Below are positions 2,419-11,160 of a stretch of 33,798 nucleotides of DNA, piece by piece; the stretch's first letter is position 1, and each line of letters starts with the position of its first letter. Under the pieces are notes generated by a model. The model was not told where the DNA came from. It saw only the letters and a list, made by a program, of their open reading frames with translations, and ran no database searches. This DNA comes from Bacillota bacterium (GTDB taxonomy: Bacteria; Bacillota; Clostridia; Christensenellales; DTU072). Location of the stretch: positions 1 through 33,798 of the forward strand of contig JAWXUT010000004.1 of the NCBI GenBank assembly GCA_044426075.1, written 5' to 3'. The position numbers and the translations under genes are program-made.

Positions 2419-2754
2419 AAAAATTATTTGTGCTGCAACAGAATATAAATTTTTGACAGATTTTATTTTCATACGATTAAATTACAAAGTTTAAATTTTT
2501 ATTTCATAGGTTGGCAAAATTTTATATTCGCCAGTTTGGTATCTAATTCTAGCTATTTTGGTAGCCCGATAAAGAATTTTATGAAAAAGGATAAAATTTG
2601 CATTGCATATTAAATTACATAGCATTTTTGCTATTTACAGTTATATTTATATATTTACACATAAATCTAGCGCATTATTATGAGCAAAAATATCAACCAT
2701 AACACTAAGTTTCACATAAAATTCACAAAATTTTTATAAATTCATAAAAAGCTA

Positions 2755-2783
2755 TTGTGTTTTTTTTAAATTAGATATATAAT
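2755..2783 (+). promoter_or_regulatory. Candidate sigma-70 promoter for the zinc-ribbon/4-TM gene
   Basis: TTGTGT(2755-2760), 17 nt, TATAAT(2778-2783). The region is AT-rich, so chance matches are possible. Confidence 0.35.
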
Positions 2784-2847
2784 AGTAGTATATACTAGTG
2801 TGAAAACTGTTCAGCTAGTGCTTACACCGTTTTCAAGGAGAAATTTT

Positions 2848-3981
2848 ATGGAAAATTGTACAAGTGGTGCACAATTCGAAAATGAAACGCCAGAAGCAGC
2901 AAAATCTATGCTAGCTGAAGCGCAAGCAGCCTTCGACCAAGATGCAAAAGTTAGCGTCGACCGCAACAAGATCACATATGTTTGTGAGCTTTGTGCTTGC
3001 ATCAATTTAATTGATGAACCAAACTGCACCAAGTGCGGCAAACCTCGCCCACGTGCTGAGTTTGTTAATGCATTGCGTTCACTTAGAGATGGTGTTGATG
3101 CAAAAGCTGAGTTAGAAGCTAAGGCGGCAGAAGAGGCAAAACTTGCAGAAGAAGCAAAACTTGCAGAAGAAGCACGACTTGCAGAAGAAGCAGCTAAAGA
3201 AGCAGAGGCTCAAGCTAAAACGGAAGAAGTACAATTCTATCGTTATGAAGGCGCAGCTCCTGTTGTTCAACCACAAGCAGTACATCAACCTTTTGTAATT
3301 GTTCCATATGTTGATACTCATCAAAAATTATATCAATATCAACCAAGGCAAGCATTTCGCTTTGTTCCATACACTCCAGAAGAGTTGGCAGAGCAAGCTG
3401 CTCAACAAGCAGAAATGGATGCTGCAGAGTATTTAGAAATGAAAGCTGCTAACCAACAAGCTAGCAACGCTCAAACAGAAGAGCCTAAATGTTGCGGATT
3501 TAAAAAATCTTTGGTTGCAAGGGCAGTAGGTGCAAAAAATGCGGTTGTTGGCATTGCTACAATAGTATTAATGTTCTTCTTTGCTGTGTTTAGCGCAAAT
3601 GCGGATTCAAAGGGATTAGAAATATTTAAATCATTAGGAAACTGTTTTTCAGCTGCGGGCATTAGCTTAGGTTTTAGTTCAAGTACAGTTGCCTATGTTG
3701 ATTGGACATCTTGGATTGCTCCTATTAGTTATGCACTTATCGCAATTATTTCACTTATAGTTGTTATTGTTGGCGTTAAAAAGCTAATTACTGGCAAAGG
3801 TTGCGGCAAAGGTTGGTTGTTAAATCTATCATCTGTTATCGTAGCACTTGCAATGGGCGCGTTGTTGTACTTCTGTCAAGAGGGCTTTACATTTGCTTCA
3901 TTTGGCATCGGATACTTCATTACTTTAGGCTTGACAGCATTGTCAACACTAATCGCTATCTTTACACCTAGCTGTAAATAA
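2848..3981 (+). CDS. Uncharacterised membrane protein: zinc ribbon + AEEAKL coiled-coil repeat + degenerate S-type Pro/Val/Tyr motif + 4-TM M-type domain
   Basis: The track ORF starts at GTG 2800, but the in-frame ATG 2848 follows AAGGAG (2835-2840) by 7 nt. Zinc ribbon: CELC-x10-CTKC (nt 2983-3036). Coiled-coil repeat: (AEEAKL)n. S-type motif: VVQPQAVHQPFVIVPYVDTHQKLYQYQP and FRFVPYTPEE. Four long hydrophobic helices follow (AVVGIATIVLMFFFAVFSA, WIAPISYALIAIISLIVVIVGV, WLLNLSSVIVALAMGALLYF, FGIGYFITLGLTALSTLIAIF). Confidence 0.8.
   Translation: MENCTSGAQFENETPEAAKSMLAEAQAAFDQDAKVSVDRNKITYVCELCACINLIDEPNCTKCGKPRPRAEFVNALRSLRDGVDAKAELEAKAAEEAKLAEEAKLAEEARLAEEAAKEAEAQAKTEEVQFYRYEGAAPVVQPQAVHQPFVIVPYVDTHQKLYQYQPRQAFRFVPYTPEELAEQAAQQAEMDAAEYLEMKAANQQASNAQTEEPKCCGFKKSLVARAVGAKNAVVGIATIVLMFFFAVFSANADSKGLEIFKSLGNCFSAAGISLGFSSSTVAYVDWTSWIAPISYALIAIISLIVVIVGVKKLITGKGCGKGWLLNLSSVIVALAMGALLYFCQEGFTFASFGIGYFITLGLTALSTLIAIFTPSCK
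3127..3198 (+). repeat. In-frame 18-bp tandem repeat (about 4 units) encoding AEEAKL/AEEARL/AEEAAK
   Basis: gcagaagaggcaaaactt (3127-3144), gcagaagaagcaaaactt (3145-3162), gcagaagaagcacgactt (3163-3180), gcagaagaagcagctaaa (3181-3198). Confidence 0.9.
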
Positions 3982-4002
3982 TTAGAAAAACTTATTTTGA
4001 CT

Positions 4003-4031
4003 AAAGGATTGCATATGCAGTCCTTTTTTTT
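4003..4031 (+). terminator. Rho-independent terminator after the 2848..3981 gene
   Basis: aaaggattgca / tgcagtccttt stem (one G-U pair) with a short central loop, followed by a T8 run (4024-4031). Confidence 0.75.
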
Positions 4032-4063
4032 GCAAAAAAATACAAACTTTTTTATATTTGCTA

Positions 4064-4092
4064 TTGTAATCTGTAATATAATATGATATATT
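4064..4092 (+). promoter_or_regulatory. Candidate extended -10 promoter for the first S-M gene pair
   Basis: TTGTAA(4064-4069), 17 nt, TGaTATATT(4084-4092). Confidence 0.4.
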
Positions 4093-4172
4093 AATATAGT
4101 AGTGTAATTGGGATAATTTATTTATTACTACAAAAAAATGTTTCGCCTTTATGGCAAAAGTGGAGGTTACAT

Positions 4173-4424
4173 ATGTCAAAAAAATCAAAGAAAGCAAAGC
4201 AAGAAGCCTTAGAAGCTGAAGAACAAGCAAAGTTAGCAGCAGAAGCTCAAGCTGCCCCAAAATCGCCAAAAATAAGCTTTAGGGTTATGAATAACTGTGG
4301 CGTTGTTCCAGTAGCAAGACCAGCTGACTTTATCCAATTAACACCTATTGTTCAACCTATACCTTTAGTTCCATATAGCACTCAAGAGCAACCAGTGGCT
4401 CAGTTTGAAGACGAAGAAGAATAA
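4173..4424 (+). CDS. Small S-module protein 1 (83 aa): basic N-terminus, EA/Q-rich helix, conserved Pro/Val-rich core, acidic tail
   Basis: GGAGG (4162-4166) lies 6 nt before the ATG. Sequence: MSKKSKKAKQEALEAEEQAKLAAEAQA...SFRVMNNCGVVPVARPADFIQLTPIVQPIPLVPYSTQEQPVAQFEDEEE. The core is almost identical at protein level to the 5380 gene despite many synonymous DNA differences. Confidence 0.88.
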   Translation: MSKKSKKAKQEALEAEEQAKLAAEAQAAPKSPKISFRVMNNCGVVPVARPADFIQLTPIVQPIPLVPYSTQEQPVAQFEDEEE

Positions 4425-4445
4425 GCGTTTGTGGAGGAATAAGTT

Positions 4446-5135
4446 ATGGACAAATATTATATTGTTGACCCTGCAGAGCAAGCAAAGAACAGCACAAACA
4501 TAATTATTGGCAGCGATTCAATTTATTCTACAGCAATGAACGAGGCATATGCAGCAAGATTTGGCCGTCAAGCAATAAAGTATGCTGAGAAACAAGAAGA
4601 AGAGGTTGTGGCTGAACCTGAAATTACACAAGAAGTGGTTGAAGTAAAAGAAGTGGTAGTTGTTCGCAAAAACAAAGTTGCTATCATTATAACTATGTTA
4701 ACCGCATTGCTTACAATTGCGTTAGCCGTTGCAAGTTATCTAAATATTGAGGGACTTGCAACTTACACAGCTTACTATGCTTCAGCGGGCTTACAAAGTG
4801 CTATTGAAGTGTTTAGTTCGGGGGCAAGTATAACAGTAATATTGATTTATGCACTACTACTAGCATCAATTTTGTTTGCATTACTTACTTTTATTAGAGG
4901 CATCATTTTGTTGGCTTCCAAGAAGAAGAAAAAGTGCGCACTACTATTGCCACTATTGTTTTTAGTGATGATAATCGCAAGTGTAGCTATGTTCGTAATA
5001 GAGTATATGGCTACAACAGATATTATGCTACTCATTAATCCTTTTGAGGCAGATGCAATAGGAATAGCAGCTTATGCCACAATAGCATTTGCGTTAATTG
5101 CATTTATATCATCTTTATTCTCATACAAAAAATAA
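4446..5135 (+). CDS. M-module 4-TM membrane protein (229 aa), partner of S1
   Basis: GGAGGA RBS; 21 nt after the S1 stop. Soluble acidic N-terminus, then TM1 (VAIIITMLTALLTIALAVASYL), TM2, the basic loop SKKKKKC, TM3, TM4, and a basic C-terminus (YKK). Confidence 0.8.
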   Translation: MDKYYIVDPAEQAKNSTNIIIGSDSIYSTAMNEAYAARFGRQAIKYAEKQEEEVVAEPEITQEVVEVKEVVVVRKNKVAIIITMLTALLTIALAVASYLNIEGLATYTAYYASAGLQSAIEVFSSGASITVILIYALLLASILFALLTFIRGIILLASKKKKKCALLLPLLFLVMIIASVAMFVIEYMATTDIMLLINPFEADAIGIAAYATIAFALIAFISSLFSYKK

Positions 5136-5142
5136 TCAAATC

Positions 5143-5172
5143 AAACTGGCTTCCAACGAGGTCAGTTTTTTT
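5143..5172 (+). terminator. Rho-independent terminator after the first S-M pair
   Basis: 8-bp stem aaactggc / gtcagttt (one G-U pair), 10-nt loop, T-run to 5172. Confidence 0.6.
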
Positions 5173-5299
5173 ATGTGCAAAATTTGCGTTATGCAGTCAA
5201 CACTCTCTAGTAAAATAAAAGCAAACAGCAAGTTTGTTTGTTTTGTGAACGAGTTGTGATTAATTATGCTAAAAAATTAAAAAAAATATTGTTTTTATA

Positions 5300-5328
5300 T
5301 TGTAAATCATTAATATATATGTTACTAT
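5300..5328 (+). promoter_or_regulatory. Candidate extended -10 promoter for the second S-M pair
   Basis: TTGTAA(5300-5305), 17 nt, TGtTACTAT(5320-5328). Confidence 0.4.
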
Positions 5329-5379
5329 ATAAGTGCATAAAATAAAATCGCAATTTCCGCGATATATATGGAGGATATA

Positions 5380-5640
5380 ATGTCAAGAAAAAAGAGAAAA
5401 GCAGAAGAAGCAAGACTTGCAGCGGAAGCTCAAGCACAGCAAGAAGCGCAAGCTCAACAAGAGGTACAAGCATACAGAATGCCAAAAACCAGTTTTCGCG
5501 TTATGAATAACTGTGGAGTTGTTCCAGTTGCTAGACCTGCGGATTTTATACAATTGACACCAGTTGTACAACCTATTCCACTTGTTCCATACAGCACTCA
5601 AATGCAGCCTCTAGCTCAATTTGAAGAAGAAGAATATTAA
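5380..5640 (+). CDS. Small S-module protein 2 (86 aa)
   Basis: The track ORF starts at ATG 5368, but that ATG overlaps the GGAGG (5370-5374). ATG 5380 is correctly spaced and gives MSRKKRKAEE..., parallel to MSKKSKKAKQ of S1. C-terminus: SFRVMNNCGVVPVARPADFIQLTPVVQPIPLVPYSTQMQPLAQFEEEEY. Confidence 0.88.
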   Translation: MSRKKRKAEEARLAAEAQAQQEAQAQQEVQAYRMPKTSFRVMNNCGVVPVARPADFIQLTPVVQPIPLVPYSTQMQPLAQFEEEEY

Positions 5641-5742
5641 AAACATATTCATAAGATAATAAAATAGAGATGACTTTTAAGTTCAGTTTTAAACACTAAA
5701 ATAATGTGTTGTAGCTGAAGTGATTTTATAATGGAGGCAAAT

Positions 5743-6600
5743 ATGTATAATATTCAAAATGAACATTATAACTATGATGTAAGTGAAAAGGGTAAGGCAA
5801 CGCCTTATTTTAAAGCATATCTATCTGCTACAAACGAAAGGCCTTTTTATGAGGAACCGGTTGTGCCAGTAGTTGTAGATAACAGAAAAGAGCCTAAGCG
5901 CACATTTTTTGTATTAATGGTGGCGATATTGTCATTGTTAATAGTTGCAGTAGTGGGCTTGAGTTTTATGGGCATAATGCCAGAATACACCGCTTTATTC
6001 GGCCAACAAACAGACGAAATTGTTGGTGAAGAGTATGACGAGCCTGCTGATGAAATAGTTGCAGAAGCAGCTACAGCAGAAGACGTAACAGATGGCTCAG
6101 AAACGGATACAGAAACCGAAGAAGAGAGCGTTGAATATGTGTATGCAAAAATAAGTGCCGATGATATAATAAACAGCACGCTAAAAATGTTGGGCATTAT
6201 TGAAACAGAAGAAGAATTGGTATTTTATTCAGAGTGTTTAGCCAATATCGAATTGGTTGAGACCACAGCGCTTATCGCTTACTATGCATTGCCAGCAGCA
6301 ATTGCTTTAACTGCAATTATAGCGCTTTATATCTTTATCAAATCAATATTTGCTTTGTTTAGCGCAAAGAGACGTAAATTCAGCTATATTTCATTATTGT
6401 TACTATTGGTGAGTTTGCTAGGTATTGTTGCGGGCTTGGTTTGGAATGCAGAACCATTGTCAAGCGTACTATCATTCTTTATGATGTCGGGAACAAATTT
6501 AGTACTTGGATTGGGTTATATAATCGTTATTGTACTAGAAATTTTGCTACTAATATGCTCAATGTTCGCCTATCGTAGCAAGAAGAAGGCAAAATATTAG
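5743..6600 (+). CDS. M-module 4-TM membrane protein (285 aa) with an acidic ecto-loop
   Basis: ATG 5743 follows GGAGG (5733-5737); the track start 5731 overlaps the RBS. TM1 is FFVLMVAILSLLIVAVVGLSFMGIMPEYTALFG, followed by a D/E/T-rich segment, then three more TM helices with the basic loop SAKRRK and the C-terminus RSKKKAKY. Clear paralog of the 6940 gene. Confidence 0.8.
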   Translation: MYNIQNEHYNYDVSEKGKATPYFKAYLSATNERPFYEEPVVPVVVDNRKEPKRTFFVLMVAILSLLIVAVVGLSFMGIMPEYTALFGQQTDEIVGEEYDEPADEIVAEAATAEDVTDGSETDTETEEESVEYVYAKISADDIINSTLKMLGIIETEEELVFYSECLANIELVETTALIAYYALPAAIALTAIIALYIFIKSIFALFSAKRRKFSYISLLLLLVSLLGIVAGLVWNAEPLSSVLSFFMMSGTNLVLGLGYIIVIVLEILLLICSMFAYRSKKKAKY

Positions 6601-6624: not shown

Positions 6625-6652
6625 GGTGGATTAATTTCCACTTACTCTTTTT
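6625..6652 (+). terminator. Weak candidate terminator after the second S-M pair
   Basis: ggtgga / tccact 6-bp stem (one G-U pair), loop ttaatt. The T-run (6648-6652) sits 5 nt from the stem, which is suboptimal. Confidence 0.3.
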
Positions 6653-6939: not shown

Positions 6940-8097
6940 ATGGCAAACCAACCATCTAAAGTTAATAATAAAGTAGCGGCTTCGCCATATTACGCAAATT
7001 ATATGGCAAATAAGGGTAATGCAAACCAAAGTAGCGCCGGAAGACCTATGCAAAGGGTTCCTATGAGCACTCCTTACTATGGTGCAGCACCTATGATGGC
7101 GCCTCAACAAACCGTTAGGCCTGCCGCTAAATCAGCAGCAAAGTCAACCGTTAAACCAATGCCACAATATACAGAAAAGCAAGCTAAAAAAATCGAAAGA
7201 CAAAGAAAAAGACAAAGTTCACACTTCTTTGTAATGCGTAAAGGCGTTTGCTTCTTGATGTTTATTTGTTCATTGTTGGTTGTAGCGATGTTGGCATTGA
7301 GCTTTTTAGAAATTATGCCAAGTTTCACATCAATATACGCTATTCCAGATAACACACCACTTGATGAACGTGTTGCTGCTGATAGTTTAGAAGACGATTT
7401 AGATATCTCTAACGCTGCTAGTGATGAAGTTGCAGAAGATGACGCGCTTACAGAAGATGAGTTGTTGAGCGATGTTTATGTTGACGCTACTGAATACGTA
7501 GGTGTTGCAGATTTAATATACGGACTTGCAAACGGAATGTTTGCGTTAGGTTTGGTTGATGAAGAGGGTGTTAGCCTTTCAATCGCCTACGACGAGACAT
7601 TGGCAAGTATCCAAGCAGTTGCGCTAGAATATCCAGAAGATAGTATGGCTTCAATTGCAGCTATGATGTATGAATATATGCCACTTGCAATCGCAGTGCT
7701 TGCAGTTGTTGCAATTATTAGTTTGATAATGAGCTTTTTCGCTTTGTTTGGCAGACGAATATTTAAGGGATTTGGTTTGATGGGAATTATAATGACATTG
7801 TGTTCGGTTGTAGTTTTCATTGCGGGTCTTGCAACGCTAGGGCTTATGAACGGCAATCCAGTTTTCGCAGAAGACGGTACAATAACAAGTTTACTTGATT
7901 TCAGCCAACTAAGCGGATTCTTAACCAGAATAATATCAAGTGCACCAGCAACCGCACTAGATCCATTAGTAGATATAATGCCAGTTGTGTACTGCGCGGG
8001 TATCGGAATGTTAGCTATATTAGTAGCACCAATATTACAAATCGTGCTATCAATATTTGCAAGGCGCAAATTACCTTACAGTATTTTTGATAAGTAA
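6940..8097 (+). CDS. M-module 4-TM membrane protein (385 aa) with a P/Y/Q/A-rich N-terminal region and an acidic ecto-loop
   Basis: GAGGGAG RBS. The TM1 region FFVMRKGVCFLMFICSLLVVAMLALSFLEIMPSFTSIYA aligns with the 5743 protein. The TM2 region EYMPLAIAVLAVVAIISLIMSFFALFGRRIFK aligns with YALPAAIALTAIIALYIFIKSIFALFSAKRRK. Confidence 0.8.
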   Translation: MANQPSKVNNKVAASPYYANYMANKGNANQSSAGRPMQRVPMSTPYYGAAPMMAPQQTVRPAAKSAAKSTVKPMPQYTEKQAKKIERQRKRQSSHFFVMRKGVCFLMFICSLLVVAMLALSFLEIMPSFTSIYAIPDNTPLDERVAADSLEDDLDISNAASDEVAEDDALTEDELLSDVYVDATEYVGVADLIYGLANGMFALGLVDEEGVSLSIAYDETLASIQAVALEYPEDSMASIAAMMYEYMPLAIAVLAVVAIISLIMSFFALFGRRIFKGFGLMGIIMTLCSVVVFIAGLATLGLMNGNPVFAEDGTITSLLDFSQLSGFLTRIISSAPATALDPLVDIMPVVYCAGIGMLAILVAPILQIVLSIFARRKLPYSIFDK

Positions 8098-8114: not shown

Positions 8115-8384
8115 ATGTTTAATAGTAAACGTAAAAAAATAGAGAAACAAATGGCAATTGAAGCCGAAATGCAAGCTCGTATTAATAATGAAGCTGCACT
8201 TGTTGAGGCAAATTCACCTAAACAACCTCGTGCTTCTGTAAGATTAATGCATAACTGTGGTCCAGTGCCAATAGCACCTCCTTCAGATTTCATTCAACTT
8301 ACACCAATTGTACAACCTATCCCACTTGTTCCATATAGCACTCAAAGCCAACCACTTGTGATGTTTGACGAGTTCGAAGATTAA
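8115..8384 (+). CDS. Small S-module protein 3 (89 aa)
   Basis: AGGAGGG RBS; 17 nt after the upstream stop. Sequence: MFNSKRKKIEKQMAIEAEMQAR...SVRLMHNCGPVPIAPPSDFIQLTPIVQPIPLVPYSTQSQPLVMFDEFED. Confidence 0.88.
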   Translation: MFNSKRKKIEKQMAIEAEMQARINNEAALVEANSPKQPRASVRLMHNCGPVPIAPPSDFIQLTPIVQPIPLVPYSTQSQPLVMFDEFED

Positions 8385-8410: not shown

Positions 8411-9139
8411 ATGCAAAAAGCACAGTCAATAAATTCCTATATGGCAGACTCAAATAGTGATGTTGTTCAAGTTTCTAAAGGCGGTGGCGTACCAGTTTCA
8501 CCTATTGCGGTTACACAATACGTTACTCCTATTGTTTCTGTTGGTGCAATGGCACCATATCATCTCAAAGGGCAACCCGCTTTAGTTGAGCCAAACTACT
8601 TTGATGAAATGGCAGAAGATGCTGTTTCAACAGAAGAAGTCGTTGCTGTTGAATGTAGTGATAAAATTCGCAAAAGAGGATGTAGTTTTTCTTCTTTACT
8701 TGCAATCATATTGGCAATTGCTACTGTGTTTGCGCTAGTAGCGGGTAAATACATAAATAGCATTGCAGAGTATTGTGCTATTGCTGATGGTTCAATAGGA
8801 TATACTTATATTGAATCATTAATAAACAACATTACCAGCGGTGTTGTATTGAGCGCAGAAAATATTATTCCACTTTGCGTGGCATTAATAGCAGTGTGCA
8901 GCATATTGACAATTATCGCTTGTGTTATTAAATTAGGCTATAAAGGGGTTTGTATATTTGCAAAAATTACCATACTTCTTACGCTAGCAAGTTGTGGCGT
9001 TGCGTTAGGTTACGCAATTGGTACAGGGATTGCTGTTGATATTTGCCTATATGTTATATGTGGTATTACTTTTATACAAAGCGTTGTTGCGTTATGTGTA
9101 AAAAGATATAAAAATTGTAAAAAAGAAATTAAAGCTTAG
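8411..9139 (+). CDS. Fusion protein: degenerate S motif + M-module 4-TM domain (242 aa)
   Basis: GGGAGGA RBS. The N-terminus GGGVPVSPIAVTQYVTPIVSVGAMAPYHLKGQPALVEPNYFDE resembles the S core. It is followed by RKRGCSF-TM1 and three further TM helices, with the basic C-terminus KRYKNCKKEIKA. Confidence 0.8.
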   Translation: MQKAQSINSYMADSNSDVVQVSKGGGVPVSPIAVTQYVTPIVSVGAMAPYHLKGQPALVEPNYFDEMAEDAVSTEEVVAVECSDKIRKRGCSFSSLLAIILAIATVFALVAGKYINSIAEYCAIADGSIGYTYIESLINNITSGVVLSAENIIPLCVALIAVCSILTIIACVIKLGYKGVCIFAKITILLTLASCGVALGYAIGTGIAVDICLYVICGITFIQSVVALCVKRYKNCKKEIKA

Positions 9140-9170
9140 TTTAAACTGAAGAGGGATTAAGGAGAGCCGT

Positions 9171-9560
9171 ATGAATAGAAAAAAATCAAAAAAATGTTGC
9201 CAACCTGCAGTTGCTGAAACTTGTGCTCCAGTACAAGAACAACGCAGACCAGCGGTTGCTGTTGCAACAAATATGCCTTTTGCGCAACAATCACAACAAG
9301 CAGCATATATGCCAAACGCAAGTCAATTTGCAGTTATGGGCAACGCAATGCCTATGGGATTAGCTCAATACAATTCTGTTGATGAGTATGGCCGAGTTTA
9401 TAGTCCAATAATGAGTTATGGCCCACAACCAAACAGCGCACCAGTGCCAGTTGCAATTCCATCACAAATTGTACAATTGACACCAATAGTAGCCCCTGTT
9501 TCATTTGTACCATATGCAACACAAAACCAAGGCTTGTATCAATTTGAAGAAGAGATTTAA
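9171..9560 (+). CDS. Small S-module protein 4 (129 aa), longer Q/M/A/P-rich middle
   Basis: AAGGAGAG RBS. N-terminus: MNRKKSKKCC. C-terminus: APVPVAIPSQIVQLTPIVAPVSFVPYATQNQGLYQFEEEI. Confidence 0.85.
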   Translation: MNRKKSKKCCQPAVAETCAPVQEQRRPAVAVATNMPFAQQSQQAAYMPNASQFAVMGNAMPMGLAQYNSVDEYGRVYSPIMSYGPQPNSAPVPVAIPSQIVQLTPIVAPVSFVPYATQNQGLYQFEEEI

Positions 9561-9577
9561 ACAAAGGGAGAAGTTTA

Positions 9578-10525
9578 ATGGAAAACAATACTAACAACAT
9601 CGGTCTACAATCAAATCAAGGCGCACAGCAATCACAAGGTAAGTGGGTAGCTGTTGATGCCAATACTGTAGGCAATATTCCTACCGATATCGCAGCCAAT
9701 CAACCTTTTCAAGGTGCTGATGGCGCTATGTACTGTATGGGTGAACCACAACAAGCACTTGCTCAAATTAACAGCAATGTTACGCAAAACGCAGTGCCAG
9801 TTCCTTCCTCAATAGTGCAAATGCCACCTATCGTGCAACCTATTGCATTGGTGCCATTTACATCACAAAATCAACCATTATTGCAATATGATCCATATTC
9901 AAGGCCAGTAGAACCTCAAGTTCAACCAGCTCAACCAGAATATAAACTAAATCCTTACAAAGGCAACAGCCTTGCTGCTATGCTTTTAGGAATTGTATCA
10001 TTGGTGCTAGTACTATTCTTGTCAATGGCGAACTTTGCAGAAACAGCTTCTGTTGCAGCATATAGCTCTAACGGATTAGATATGATATTTGCAGTGCTTG
10101 CATATTTCGGTCTTGGTGTTTCAAGTTCATACTACACTGGCAATATTGAACCAAACCTAGATTCAATGTCTTCTGACATAATGAGTGCAATTATTGTTTT
10201 TGCTGTACCAGTTTGCATAATTGTTATAGCGTTAATAACATTAATTCTTGTTATCAAGAACCTAGTTAAATTAGCAAAAGGTGTTTCACCAAAATGCTTC
10301 AGCATAGGTGCACTAGTTAATATAATATTGATTGTTGCTGTACTTGGATTCTTGCTAGGTATGAACAATGCAGCTGAGGGCGAAATGAATATCGCTGGAT
10401 TCTTTAGCAGAAGTTCTAGCATTTACTGGGGAATTGGTCTTGCTGTAGCATTAGTATTAAATATAGTACATATTATAATAGTAGCTCTTCCAAAGAAAAA
10501 CAATTATATTGAAATCAACAAATAA
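9578..10525 (+). CDS. Fusion protein: S motif + M-module 4-TM domain (315 aa)
   Basis: AGGGAGAAG RBS. The N-terminal half contains AVPVPSSIVQMPPIVQPIALVPFTSQNQPLLQYDPY. Then come TM1 (LAAMLLGIVSLVLVLFLSMANF), TM2, the loop KLAKGVSPKC, TM3, TM4 and the C-terminus PKKNNYIEINK. Confidence 0.82.
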   Translation: MENNTNNIGLQSNQGAQQSQGKWVAVDANTVGNIPTDIAANQPFQGADGAMYCMGEPQQALAQINSNVTQNAVPVPSSIVQMPPIVQPIALVPFTSQNQPLLQYDPYSRPVEPQVQPAQPEYKLNPYKGNSLAAMLLGIVSLVLVLFLSMANFAETASVAAYSSNGLDMIFAVLAYFGLGVSSSYYTGNIEPNLDSMSSDIMSAIIVFAVPVCIIVIALITLILVIKNLVKLAKGVSPKCFSIGALVNIILIVAVLGFLLGMNNAAEGEMNIAGFFSRSSSIYWGIGLAVALVLNIVHIIIVALPKKNNYIEINK

Positions 10526-10551: not shown

Positions 10552-10591
10552 TGGTGCGGTTTTGAATTTACAGAACAGCACCATTATTTTT
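10552..10591 (+). terminator. Rho-independent terminator (or attenuator) closing the S/M array
   Basis: 13-bp stem tggtgcggttttg / cagaacagcacca (1 mismatch, 1 G-U pair), 6-nt loop, then ttattttt. Confidence 0.7.
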
Positions 10592-10606
10592 AAAAAGGAG
10601 TTTATA

Positions 10607-10840
10607 ATGATAGAAGAAAAAGTTAAATTAGCAATTGCAGACCAATTGGGAATAGAGGCGTCAGATATCAAGCTAGAAGATGAATTGATTGCAGATTTAA
10701 ATGCAGATTCATTGGATATTGTACAATTATTGATGGAAATTGAAGTGGAATATGGCATCGAATTTGATGATAATTCTGATAGTGTTAAAAACATAAAAAC
10801 AGTACAAGACGTAGTAAATTTCATCAGTTCAAAAAACTAA
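10607..10840 (+). CDS. acpP: Acyl carrier protein (77 aa), not next to fab/pls genes
   Basis: AAGGAG (10595-10600) lies 6 nt before ATG 10607; the track start 10562 is inside the terminator hairpin. DLNADSLDIVQLLMEIEVEYGIEF matches the AcpP phosphopantetheine-attachment region (DSLD). Confidence 0.8.
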   Translation: MIEEKVKLAIADQLGIEASDIKLEDELIADLNADSLDIVQLLMEIEVEYGIEFDDNSDSVKNIKTVQDVVNFISSKN

Positions 10841-10992: not shown

Positions 10993-11160
10993 ATGAGCAG
11001 CGCTAAAAAAGACAAAAAGAAGATTACTCTTGCTTGCACAGAGTGCAAACAACGTAACTATGATAGCACTAAAAACAGCAAAAATGATCCAGAAAGAATG
11101 GAGTTAAACAAATATTGCCGTTTTTGCAAAAAACACACAGCCCATAAAGAAACCAAATAA
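10993..11160 (+). CDS. rpmG: 50S ribosomal protein L33 (55 aa; below the ORF-track length cut-off)
   Basis: Hand translation: [55 protein letters not shown]. It has the C-x2-C...C-x2-C zinc-type L33 pattern, a GGAGG RBS, and the canonical position upstream of secE. Confidence 0.85.

Follow-up and report, generated by a model that had tools for sequence, protein, structure and literature searches.

The closest described counterparts of the locus reported here are the LetA modules, in which a cytoplasmic zinc ribbon is followed by a tetraspan-like, four-helix transmembrane (TM) domain with extracytoplasmic beta-strands, and which either share a single gene or come from genes lying side by side (PMC13017536). 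We analyzed a stretch of 33,798 nucleotides from a Bacillota bacterium of the Christensenellales (contig JAWXUT010000004.1; this whole stretch is referred to as the window) that carries, upstream of the rpmG operon, ten plus-strand genes without annotation: F2800, S4173, M4446, S5368, M5731, M6940, S8115, M8411, S9171 and M9578. The cluster encodes small free proteins (S) and membrane proteins with four TM segments (M), and a short sequence, the S motif, is found both in the free proteins and on the N-terminal tail of some of the membrane proteins. Judged from sequence, the two families are clearly tied in function: their linkage, exclusive architecture and conserved order indicate that S and M act together. 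The S-M system is clean, strongly conserved and restricted to one lineage, and has as yet no link to a known process.

Neither the motif nor either protein family has been described before, and none of them has a relative in Pfam, NCBIfam, PDB, PHROGs or PADLOC. For all ten cluster proteins Pfam and NCBIfam returned nothing at or near the curated thresholds, and PHROGs and PADLOC gave no match at an E value of 0.01; on the latter result we rejected a phage or defence origin. The Pfam assignment was likewise empty for all 240 relatives listed in the M9578 and free S families. Among solved structures the motif profile has no sequence relative and the M9578-family profile finds only chance-level matches, and a literature search for a described family of this kind returned nothing relevant besides the LetA paper.

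The likeness to LetA and PqiA lies in F2800, which combines a zinc ribbon with four TM helices, but with about 160 residues of coiled coil and S motif between the two, and is followed by an array of paralogous four-TM genes. LetA (Escherichia coli, PDB 9n8w) is also the top Foldseek match of the modeled M9578 structure, at an E value of 0.054 and a TM-score of 0.16-0.20, which is not significant. The two systems differ in several respects: Pfam recognizes no PqiA domain in the cluster proteins, LetA lacks an S-like motif, and the zinc ribbon is confined here to the F protein and absent from the other M proteins. We rejected homology to LetA after aligning the M9578 family with E. coli LetA by hhalign (probability 0.2%, 22 columns), and because of this value, together with the lack of any MCE domain in the cluster genes of the window and of two related loci (L001 and L003), membership in the LetA/PqiA family is not supported.

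After LetA, the Foldseek matches listed are mostly members of the tetraspan superfamily (claudins, TARPs, the Cav gamma subunit and MP20), with E values of 0.2 or higher and 6-14% identity, none of them significant; their TM-scores are 0.3-0.5 when normalized to the target (0.50 for MP20) and 0.2-0.3 when normalized to the query, a model that includes about 125 non-TM residues. The M9578 model shares with claudins, TARPs and the PMP22-MP20 group its four TM helices, the placement of both termini inside and the presence of beta-strands in the outer loops (residues 149-153, 162-165 and 282-284). In claudins and TARPs, scaffolds are recruited by short peptides of the cytoplasmic tails. These eukaryotic proteins have no sequence relation to M9578, and the peptide here differs in being N-terminal, 35-50 residues long and also made as free proteins. 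The tetraspan or LetA-like fold might extend to monoderm bacteria.

Homology of the S motif in free and membrane proteins

A preceding sequence-only reading of positions 8411-10525 held that the S motif is fused to the N-terminus of two M proteins, each encoded directly behind a free S gene. We found the four open reading frames (ORFs) exactly so arranged on the plus strand: S8115 (8115-8384), a small free S protein of 89 residues (P0154 in the 180-member free-S family); M8411 (8411-9139), a D-type protein of 242 residues; S9171 (9171-9560), a long free S protein of the B type with 129 residues; and M9578 (9578-10525), a C-type protein of 315 residues. Both M proteins have four TM helices and bear the motif on an N-terminal tail predicted to be cytoplasmic, and the motif strings were recovered letter for letter at residues 72-107 of M9578 (9791-9898, plus strand), where the motif is intact, and at residues 27-66 of M8411 (8489-8608, plus strand; VPVSPIAVTQYVTPIVSVGAMAPYHLKGQPALVEPNYFDE), where it appears decayed.

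The core segments of the window's four free S proteins served to build a profile hidden Markov model (HMM), and significance was estimated from 2000 composition-preserving shuffles per target. M9578 scored 37.6 bits (E = 8e-14), a value reached by none of its 2000 shuffles, the best of which scored 13.8 bits. M8411 scored 5.4-12.7 bits with a best domain of 5.4 bits, in keeping with the earlier description of this copy as the more degenerate one; its score was reached by 3 of 2000 shuffles for the N-terminal 95 residues and by 0 of 2000 for a 51-residue segment, and BLASTP aligned it with S8115 at an E value of 3e-4. The similarity therefore goes beyond composition in both proteins. The three remaining M proteins, M4446, M5731 and M6940, have no motif according to the free-S HMM and score like shuffles.

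Were the similarity of M8411 a matter of Pro/Val/Gln composition only, a single true fusion would be left in 8411-10525. The low HMM score of 5.4 bits would agree with this, as would the loss of several family-conserved positions (VQLTP to TQYVTP, QPIAF to SVGAM and VPYSTQ to APYHLK), but such scores are matched by just 0-3 of 2000 shuffles, and M8411 occupies the D-type slot of a conserved gene order and is colinear over its whole length with D-type relatives from other genomes, which read ..PV..P...VQLTPIIQPIAFVPYSTQDQPLYMYDEEEE.. at the motif site. Moreover, its homologues in other loci have an intact motif at the same place in 40 of 40 cases (HMM E value of 1e-3 or better; for example, 66.9 bits for the homologue at 8423-9112 of L003). 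Because all 40 homologues elsewhere carry the intact motif, the M8411 copy is, on these comparisons, a decayed true copy, and we give the compositional explanation next to no credence. For the motif in general, an artefact of composition is ruled out by the shuffles together with the homologues in other genomes.

F2800 (2800-3981, plus strand), the first gene of the cluster, is a third motif-bearing membrane protein, and was absent from the earlier reading. It consists of a CxxC-x11-CxxC zinc ribbon (2983-3039), an A/E/K-rich coiled coil, a divergent S motif (3262-3345, QPFVIVPYVDTHQKLYQYQP) and four TM helices. It scores about 6 bits against the free-S HMM, with 2-9 of 2000 shuffles reaching that score, and is colinear with M9578 (E = 7.5e-5). 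Its 49 homologues are mostly about 30% identical over nearly the full length; an F-type motif, QPFV[IV]VPYV..Q..(W/Y)QY.P, is common to F2800, L001 and L003, and in all loci whose contig includes the cluster start, the first cluster gene is a homologue of F2800.

Distribution, gene order and the free and fused classes

At an E value of 1e-3 or better M9578 has 127 relatives; the 120 listed are mostly full-length, and the motif is present in 120 of 120. Free S proteins have 180 relatives, with lengths of 60-115 residues among the 120 listed. A scan that used one genome per species yielded 65 loci, nearly all titled as uncultured Christensenellales, Christensenellaceae or Clostridia metagenome-assembled genomes (MAGs), including Ca. 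Stercoripulliclostridium, and a profile search of 1.84 billion representative proteins matched just 162 clusters. As far as these sequence searches reach, the gene cluster is specific to one lineage, the uncultured Christensenellales-like Clostridia of the gut. Across 70 sequences the motif was counted 290 times; 184 copies are free and 105 fused, and four TM helices accompany 92 of the fused ones. A further 134 representative clusters comprise 68 small free proteins, 53 proteins with motif and TM helices, nine with a zinc ribbon and the motif but no TM helix, and four fragments; no other known domain is attached to the motif in these 134, in which its partners are this four-TM domain or zinc ribbons only.

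The linkage of the two families is close. Free S genes that are not at a contig edge precede a same-strand ORF with at least three TM helices in 164 of 177 cases; the M partner bears a motif of its own in 94 of these 164 S-M pairs, and a free S gene lies directly upstream of 91 of the 105 fused proteins. This undescribed cluster of 8-10 genes, represented in dozens of uncultured Christensenellales-like MAGs, has a fixed position and a near-fixed order in most of 69 other loci, MFS - GltX - F(Zn+TM) - m - a - m - a - D - b - C - ACP - L33 - NusG, where a and b are free S genes, m is a four-TM gene without motif, and C, D and F are motif-bearing four-TM genes. The B type is always free (41 copies), and its order relative to C is conserved. 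The window has the variant F a m a m m a D* b C, in which D* is M8411. Where most relatives have m-a-m-a, it has a-m, a-m (4173-6600), and S4173 and S5368 are 87% identical over a 53-residue aligned core; the arrangement suggests a lineage-specific rearrangement or duplication of the S-M unit, and coincides with the decay of the M8411 motif.

Extra a-m pairs, in which m has no motif, lie away from the main cluster in some genomes (L027, L028, L032, L033 and L035). The neighbors of the pair in L035 (10001-10913) are unrelated metabolic enzymes that offer no clue to function; since the isolated pairs sit in unrelated neighborhoods, the a-m pair appears to be an autonomous unit. In a more distant lineage (L070) the role of free S is taken by a soluble multi-zinc-ribbon protein with a C-terminal motif, whose gene ends 2 nucleotides before a motif-bearing M gene. 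The L070 cluster (2596-5386) is reduced to GltX, the zinc-ribbon-S protein and two motif-bearing M genes, and is followed by a metallo-beta-lactamase-fold gene and two Rce1-like/CPBP genes.

Rce1-like/CPBP genes near this one distant locus, and a layout in which a small gene followed by a four-TM gene is repeated in an array, are what one would expect if the S-M pairs were bacteriocin or toxin peptides with four-TM immunity proteins. We consider this highly improbable: the S core is near-invariant among free-S relatives from many MAGs, no leader or double-glycine site was seen and no transporter or peptidase family is matched by any cluster gene, the would-be immunity protein itself has the motif on its cytoplasmic tail, the chromosomal position next to rpmG-secE-nusG is fixed, and PADLOC and PHROGs are without matches.

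Motif copies fall into four subtypes: A (free; SFRVMNNCxPVPVAxPADFIQLTP...QPLAQFDEEE), B (long free), C (fused, M9578 type) and D (fused, M8411 type). Of 284 cores, 277 have their nearest neighbor in another locus in the same free or fused state; most of the remainder lie at contig edges or belong to one split D-type copy in L001. There (9060-9802 of a 2.39-Mb JGI scaffold) the D-type protein is divided into a 98-residue S part and a 123-residue part with three TM helices; the frame changes from +2 to +1 at TM1 and the assembly is old, so that the split probably reflects a frameshift or a fault of assembly rather than a true fission. Motif-less proteins are equally constant, with the motif found in 0 of 8 homologues of M4446 and 0 of 72 homologues of M6940. 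M5731 is homologous to M6940 (E = 6e-19), and M5731 and M4446 are distant paralogues of M9578 (E = 7e-6 and 1e-3, respectively). Free and fused forms are thus, by sequence comparison among loci, old and stable classes.

These observations bear on the Rosetta-stone inference, in which proteins encoded separately in one genome and fused in another are taken to interact. As in that inference, a composite of S and four TM helices coexists here with separately encoded homologues of both parts: D- and C-type proteins consist of an S core and a four-TM domain homologous to the motif-less m proteins, which makes a Rosetta-stone pair in the loose sense. In the strict sense, with orthologues split in one genome and fused in another, we found no such pair. 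Two features set the present case apart, namely that components and composite are paralogues within the same genome, and that the composite keeps a free component as its neighbor. Because the free and fused states are fixed per orthologous group, the Rosetta relation holds only between distant paralogues, and because 91 of the 105 fused proteins still have free S upstream, a simple fission does not account for the pairs. Recent fission or fusion events were looked for among the loci compared and none was found. In the sequence-only reading, the occurrence of the same motif free beside M and fused to M had counted as classical fusion/fission evidence for physical contact between the two, and a phylogeny of free and fused cores had been proposed as a way to date the fusions. 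Of this, the homology and the functional coupling of S and M survive; the orthologous fusion or fission does not, and specific binding is a possibility that the data do not single out, with the invariance of the motif, the divergence of M and the lack of docking in cis speaking against it (see below). A fused-plus-free pattern among paralogues supports shared function and not specific binary contact, which is a methodological warning for the use of such patterns elsewhere.

Topology, conservation and a possible docking role of the motif

Free S proteins have no hydrophobic segment, and all M proteins have four TM segments. We counted charges by region in 118 relatives of M9578 (mean Lys plus Arg). 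The juxtamembrane N-terminal segment has 3.1 in 14.5 residues, loop 2 has 2.1 in 8 and the C-tail 4.1 in 22, in contrast to 2.6 in the 51 residues of loop 1 (net charge -2.3) and 1.0 in the 17 residues of loop 3; positive residues are thus enriched in the stretch that leads into TM1 as well as in loop 2 and the C-tail, and loops 1 and 3 are depleted of them. The positive-inside rule therefore predicts a cytoplasmic location for the two termini of M, so that the claim that the motif lies on the cytoplasmic side holds for the free and the fused form alike. The accompanying figure of about 40 residues between motif and first helix is right for the motif center only; the end of the motif is about 20 residues from TM1 in M9578 and about 25 in M8411, with a median of 21 residues over 105 fused proteins.

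Conservation was measured as majority-residue frequency in the 118 relatives of one motif-bearing family, the M9578 type. It is 0.91 in the S motif, a region of 40 residues (entropy 0.39 bits), 0.66-0.69 in an N-terminal hairpin, loop 2 and the C-tail, 0.46-0.52 in the TM helices, and 0.39-0.41 in the outer loops. A contrast of this kind between motif and TM domain is usually the mark of a contact with machinery that is essential and evolves slowly. Every invariant motif residue is encoded by several synonymous codons, and because these vary freely there, selection acts on the protein; conservation at the RNA level is ruled out on the same ground. The A, B and C types, and most copies of the D type, have the conserved positions QLxPxVQP....VPY..Q.QP in common; in the numbering of S4173, Q55, P58, Q61, P62, P67 and Y68 rank as most conserved. 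Among the paralogues of the window the free S cores are mutually 58-87% identical in local alignments and their M partners barely align; the M paralogues have no common cytoplasmic sequence beyond positive charge. In the M9578 family conservation is lowest in the outer loops, which may lie exposed at the surface and evolve fast. Outer loop 1 of M5731 and M6940 has 88-105 residues, with 28 Asp/Glu and just 1-2 Lys/Arg.

AlphaFold2 (AF2) models agree in leaving the motif without structure. For M9578 (118 sequences) the predicted score in the local distance difference test (pLDDT) is 83 overall and above 90 in the TM domain, but only 44-50 for residues 59-105, and the motif is unstructured and undocked in cis. 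For free S4173 (120 sequences; pLDDT 65.6, predicted TM-score 0.22) the model shows an N-terminal helix only, with an unstructured core. The flanks of free S proteins are variable, with a basic N-terminal helix and an acidic and aromatic C-tail. Intact cores are built of triplets of two hydrophobic residues followed by Gln or Pro (FIQ LTP IVQ PIP LVP) and their hydrophobic moment stands out at 120 degrees per residue (z 2.0-2.7, p 0.012-0.039) but not at 100, 160 or 180 degrees; this period-3 signal is not seen in the decayed M8411 copy or in the F2800 copy. The S core is possibly an amphipathic helix of the polyproline-II type. Polyproline-II linear motifs include the ligands of SH3, WW and EVH1 domains, and the (VHLPPP)8 repeat of gamma-zein is amphipathic. 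By analogy, S resembles them in its proline in nearly every triplet, its period-3 hydrophobicity and its lack of a predicted autonomous fold; it differs in having no recognized consensus (PxxP, PPxY) and in that no reader domain was found in the cluster.

M9578 has a second conserved cytoplasmic element at residues 21-53 (9638-9736, plus strand; GxWxxVD...GxDGxxYC), in which G21, D48, G49 and Y52 are invariant and W23 nearly so. It is modeled as a beta-hairpin (pLDDT 83-87, strands 43-45 and 51-53) that may pack against two other strands, one juxtamembrane (122-124) and one in the C-tail (310-312). Its similarity to the beta-propeller blade signature of the designed protein Cake2 is not significant (E = 2.4).

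Taken together, we tentatively favor, at slightly less than an even chance, a reading in which S is a cytoplasmic docking peptide for a shared, conserved partner, with M as its anchor at the membrane. S would be an intrinsically unstructured cytoplasmic peptide of 35-50 residues, rich in proline and glutamine, and would be presented in two ways: by small soluble proteins a and b (zinc-ribbon proteins in another lineage), and by the paralogous four-TM proteins C, D and F, with both termini inside, on an N-terminal tail about 21 residues from TM1. Soluble and membrane carriers, co-transcribed in pairs, would form one membrane-proximal assembly, in which the invariant S core would contact a shared, highly conserved surface, either that of other S copies in a multi-subunit complex or that of a conserved third protein. 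The fast-evolving TM domain would probably not be the contact of the S core; M would serve as membrane anchor, and the variable flanks of free S could give specificity to each pair. The reading starts from what the analysis shows, namely homology, topology and linkage, the uneven conservation and, by prediction, no autonomous fold; what we infer is the conformation of the polyproline-II type, the existence of a shared partner and the role of M as an anchor. Once found, such a partner would tell what a whole set of conserved hypothetical genes does in a group of gut bacteria that is abundant but uncultured.

Several observations weigh against the docking reading. No binding partner of S was identified, the period-3 signal is modest, and the loop 2, C-tail and N-terminal hairpin of C-type proteins are conserved enough (0.66-0.69) that they could dock S. 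The failure to dock in cis is weak evidence, because a single-chain AF2 model cannot show binding in trans and an invariant motif gives no covariation, and the isolated a-m pairs with motif-less m fit direct binding of S to m at least as well.

The S core may instead bind the cytoplasmic face of M directly, in cis in fused proteins and in trans between free S and the downstream M, the pair being equivalent to a split fused protein. The composites D, C and F stand to the components a and m in a relation of distant homology over both parts, as this would require; a-m bicistrons are tight, including the isolated ones, the motif is exclusive to this four-TM family, and the cytoplasmic loops of the C type are second in conservation. 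The isolated pairs with a motif-less m in particular keep direct binding a serious rival. Yet the motif is near-invariant while the M paralogues barely align, and since a recognition motif should co-vary with what it recognizes, the S core is unlikely to read each M domain. Free S also persists upstream of most fused proteins (91/105), no orthologous fusion or fission event was found, and AF2 leaves the motif undocked in cis; we therefore regard direct binding as rather unlikely, if well worth attention.

The position of the genes would also be compatible with free S acting in cis as a leader that tunes expression of the downstream M, through the ribosome tunnel (as in MifM and SecM) or by translational coupling. 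In three of the four S-M pairs of the window free S ends 17-26 nucleotides before M, and its conserved part is C-terminal and followed by an acidic run, an arrangement that we take to resemble the MifM stall site. A leader of the MifM/SecM type, with an N-terminal signal or TM sensor and a motif present only in the upstream ORF, is nonetheless not what free S looks like: it has no signal or TM segment with which to sense insertion, and the motif is equally invariant inside M9578-type proteins, 200 residues from the stop codon, and also occurs at the C-terminus of zinc-ribbon proteins. The conserved stretch, at about 45 residues, also appears too long for the ribosomal exit tunnel. The frames of the S-M pairs are, moreover, unbiased (61/52/51), and we judge a leader function very improbable. 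Stop-codon read-through joining S to M was rejected on the same counts: two of the four window pairs are in frame, yet the frames over all 164 pairs give no signal.

An extension of the docking reading is that the cluster encodes a bacterial membrane scaffold of a new kind, in which five paralogous tetraspan-like subunits (claudin/LetA fold) and three soluble subunits would be joined at the cytoplasmic face by co-assembling, invariant S peptides in the form of amphipathic polyproline-II helices. We think this unlikely; if true, the scaffold would correspond in bacteria to the tetraspan webs, but with its adaptor peptide built in, and would be encoded beside the rpmG-secE-nusG operon.

Genes and surroundings of the cluster in the window

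The window has a GC content of about 0.33-0.44, and its host is a low-GC Firmicute. The rpmG-secE-nusG-rplKAJL-rpoBC-rpsLG-fusA operon starts at 10993, an assignment supported by the Pfam content of the syntenic locus L003. The remaining members of the cluster, all on the plus strand, are S4173 (4173-4424), an A-type free S protein of 83 residues; its partner M4446 (4446-5135), a four-TM protein without motif; S5368 (5368-5640), an A-type free S protein of 90 residues; M5731 (5731-6600), a four-TM protein without motif and with a long acidic outer loop; and M6940 (6940-8097), also a four-TM protein without motif, which has no free S directly upstream.

The intergenic gaps are 26 nucleotides between S8115 and M8411 and 17 nucleotides between S9171 and M9578, and S8115 and M8411 have one Shine-Dalgarno sequence each. 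Terminator-like hairpins lie at 4003-4026, 5143-5168 and 6625-6642, after F2800, M4446 and M5731, respectively, and because of their positions the S-M pairs look like bicistronic units. These putative terminators would split the cluster into several transcription units, the genes from M6940 to M9578 probably forming one of them.

Adjacency to the ribosomal operon is not universal, because L001 and L002 have, where the ACP and rpmG genes would follow the cluster, a 40-residue ORF, a 235-residue protein whose family is unknown and a small radical-SAM protein (12361-14042 in L001). A lone ACP-like gene (PP-binding; 10562-10840) lies between M9578 and rpmG in the window, and the same position is kept in most related loci.

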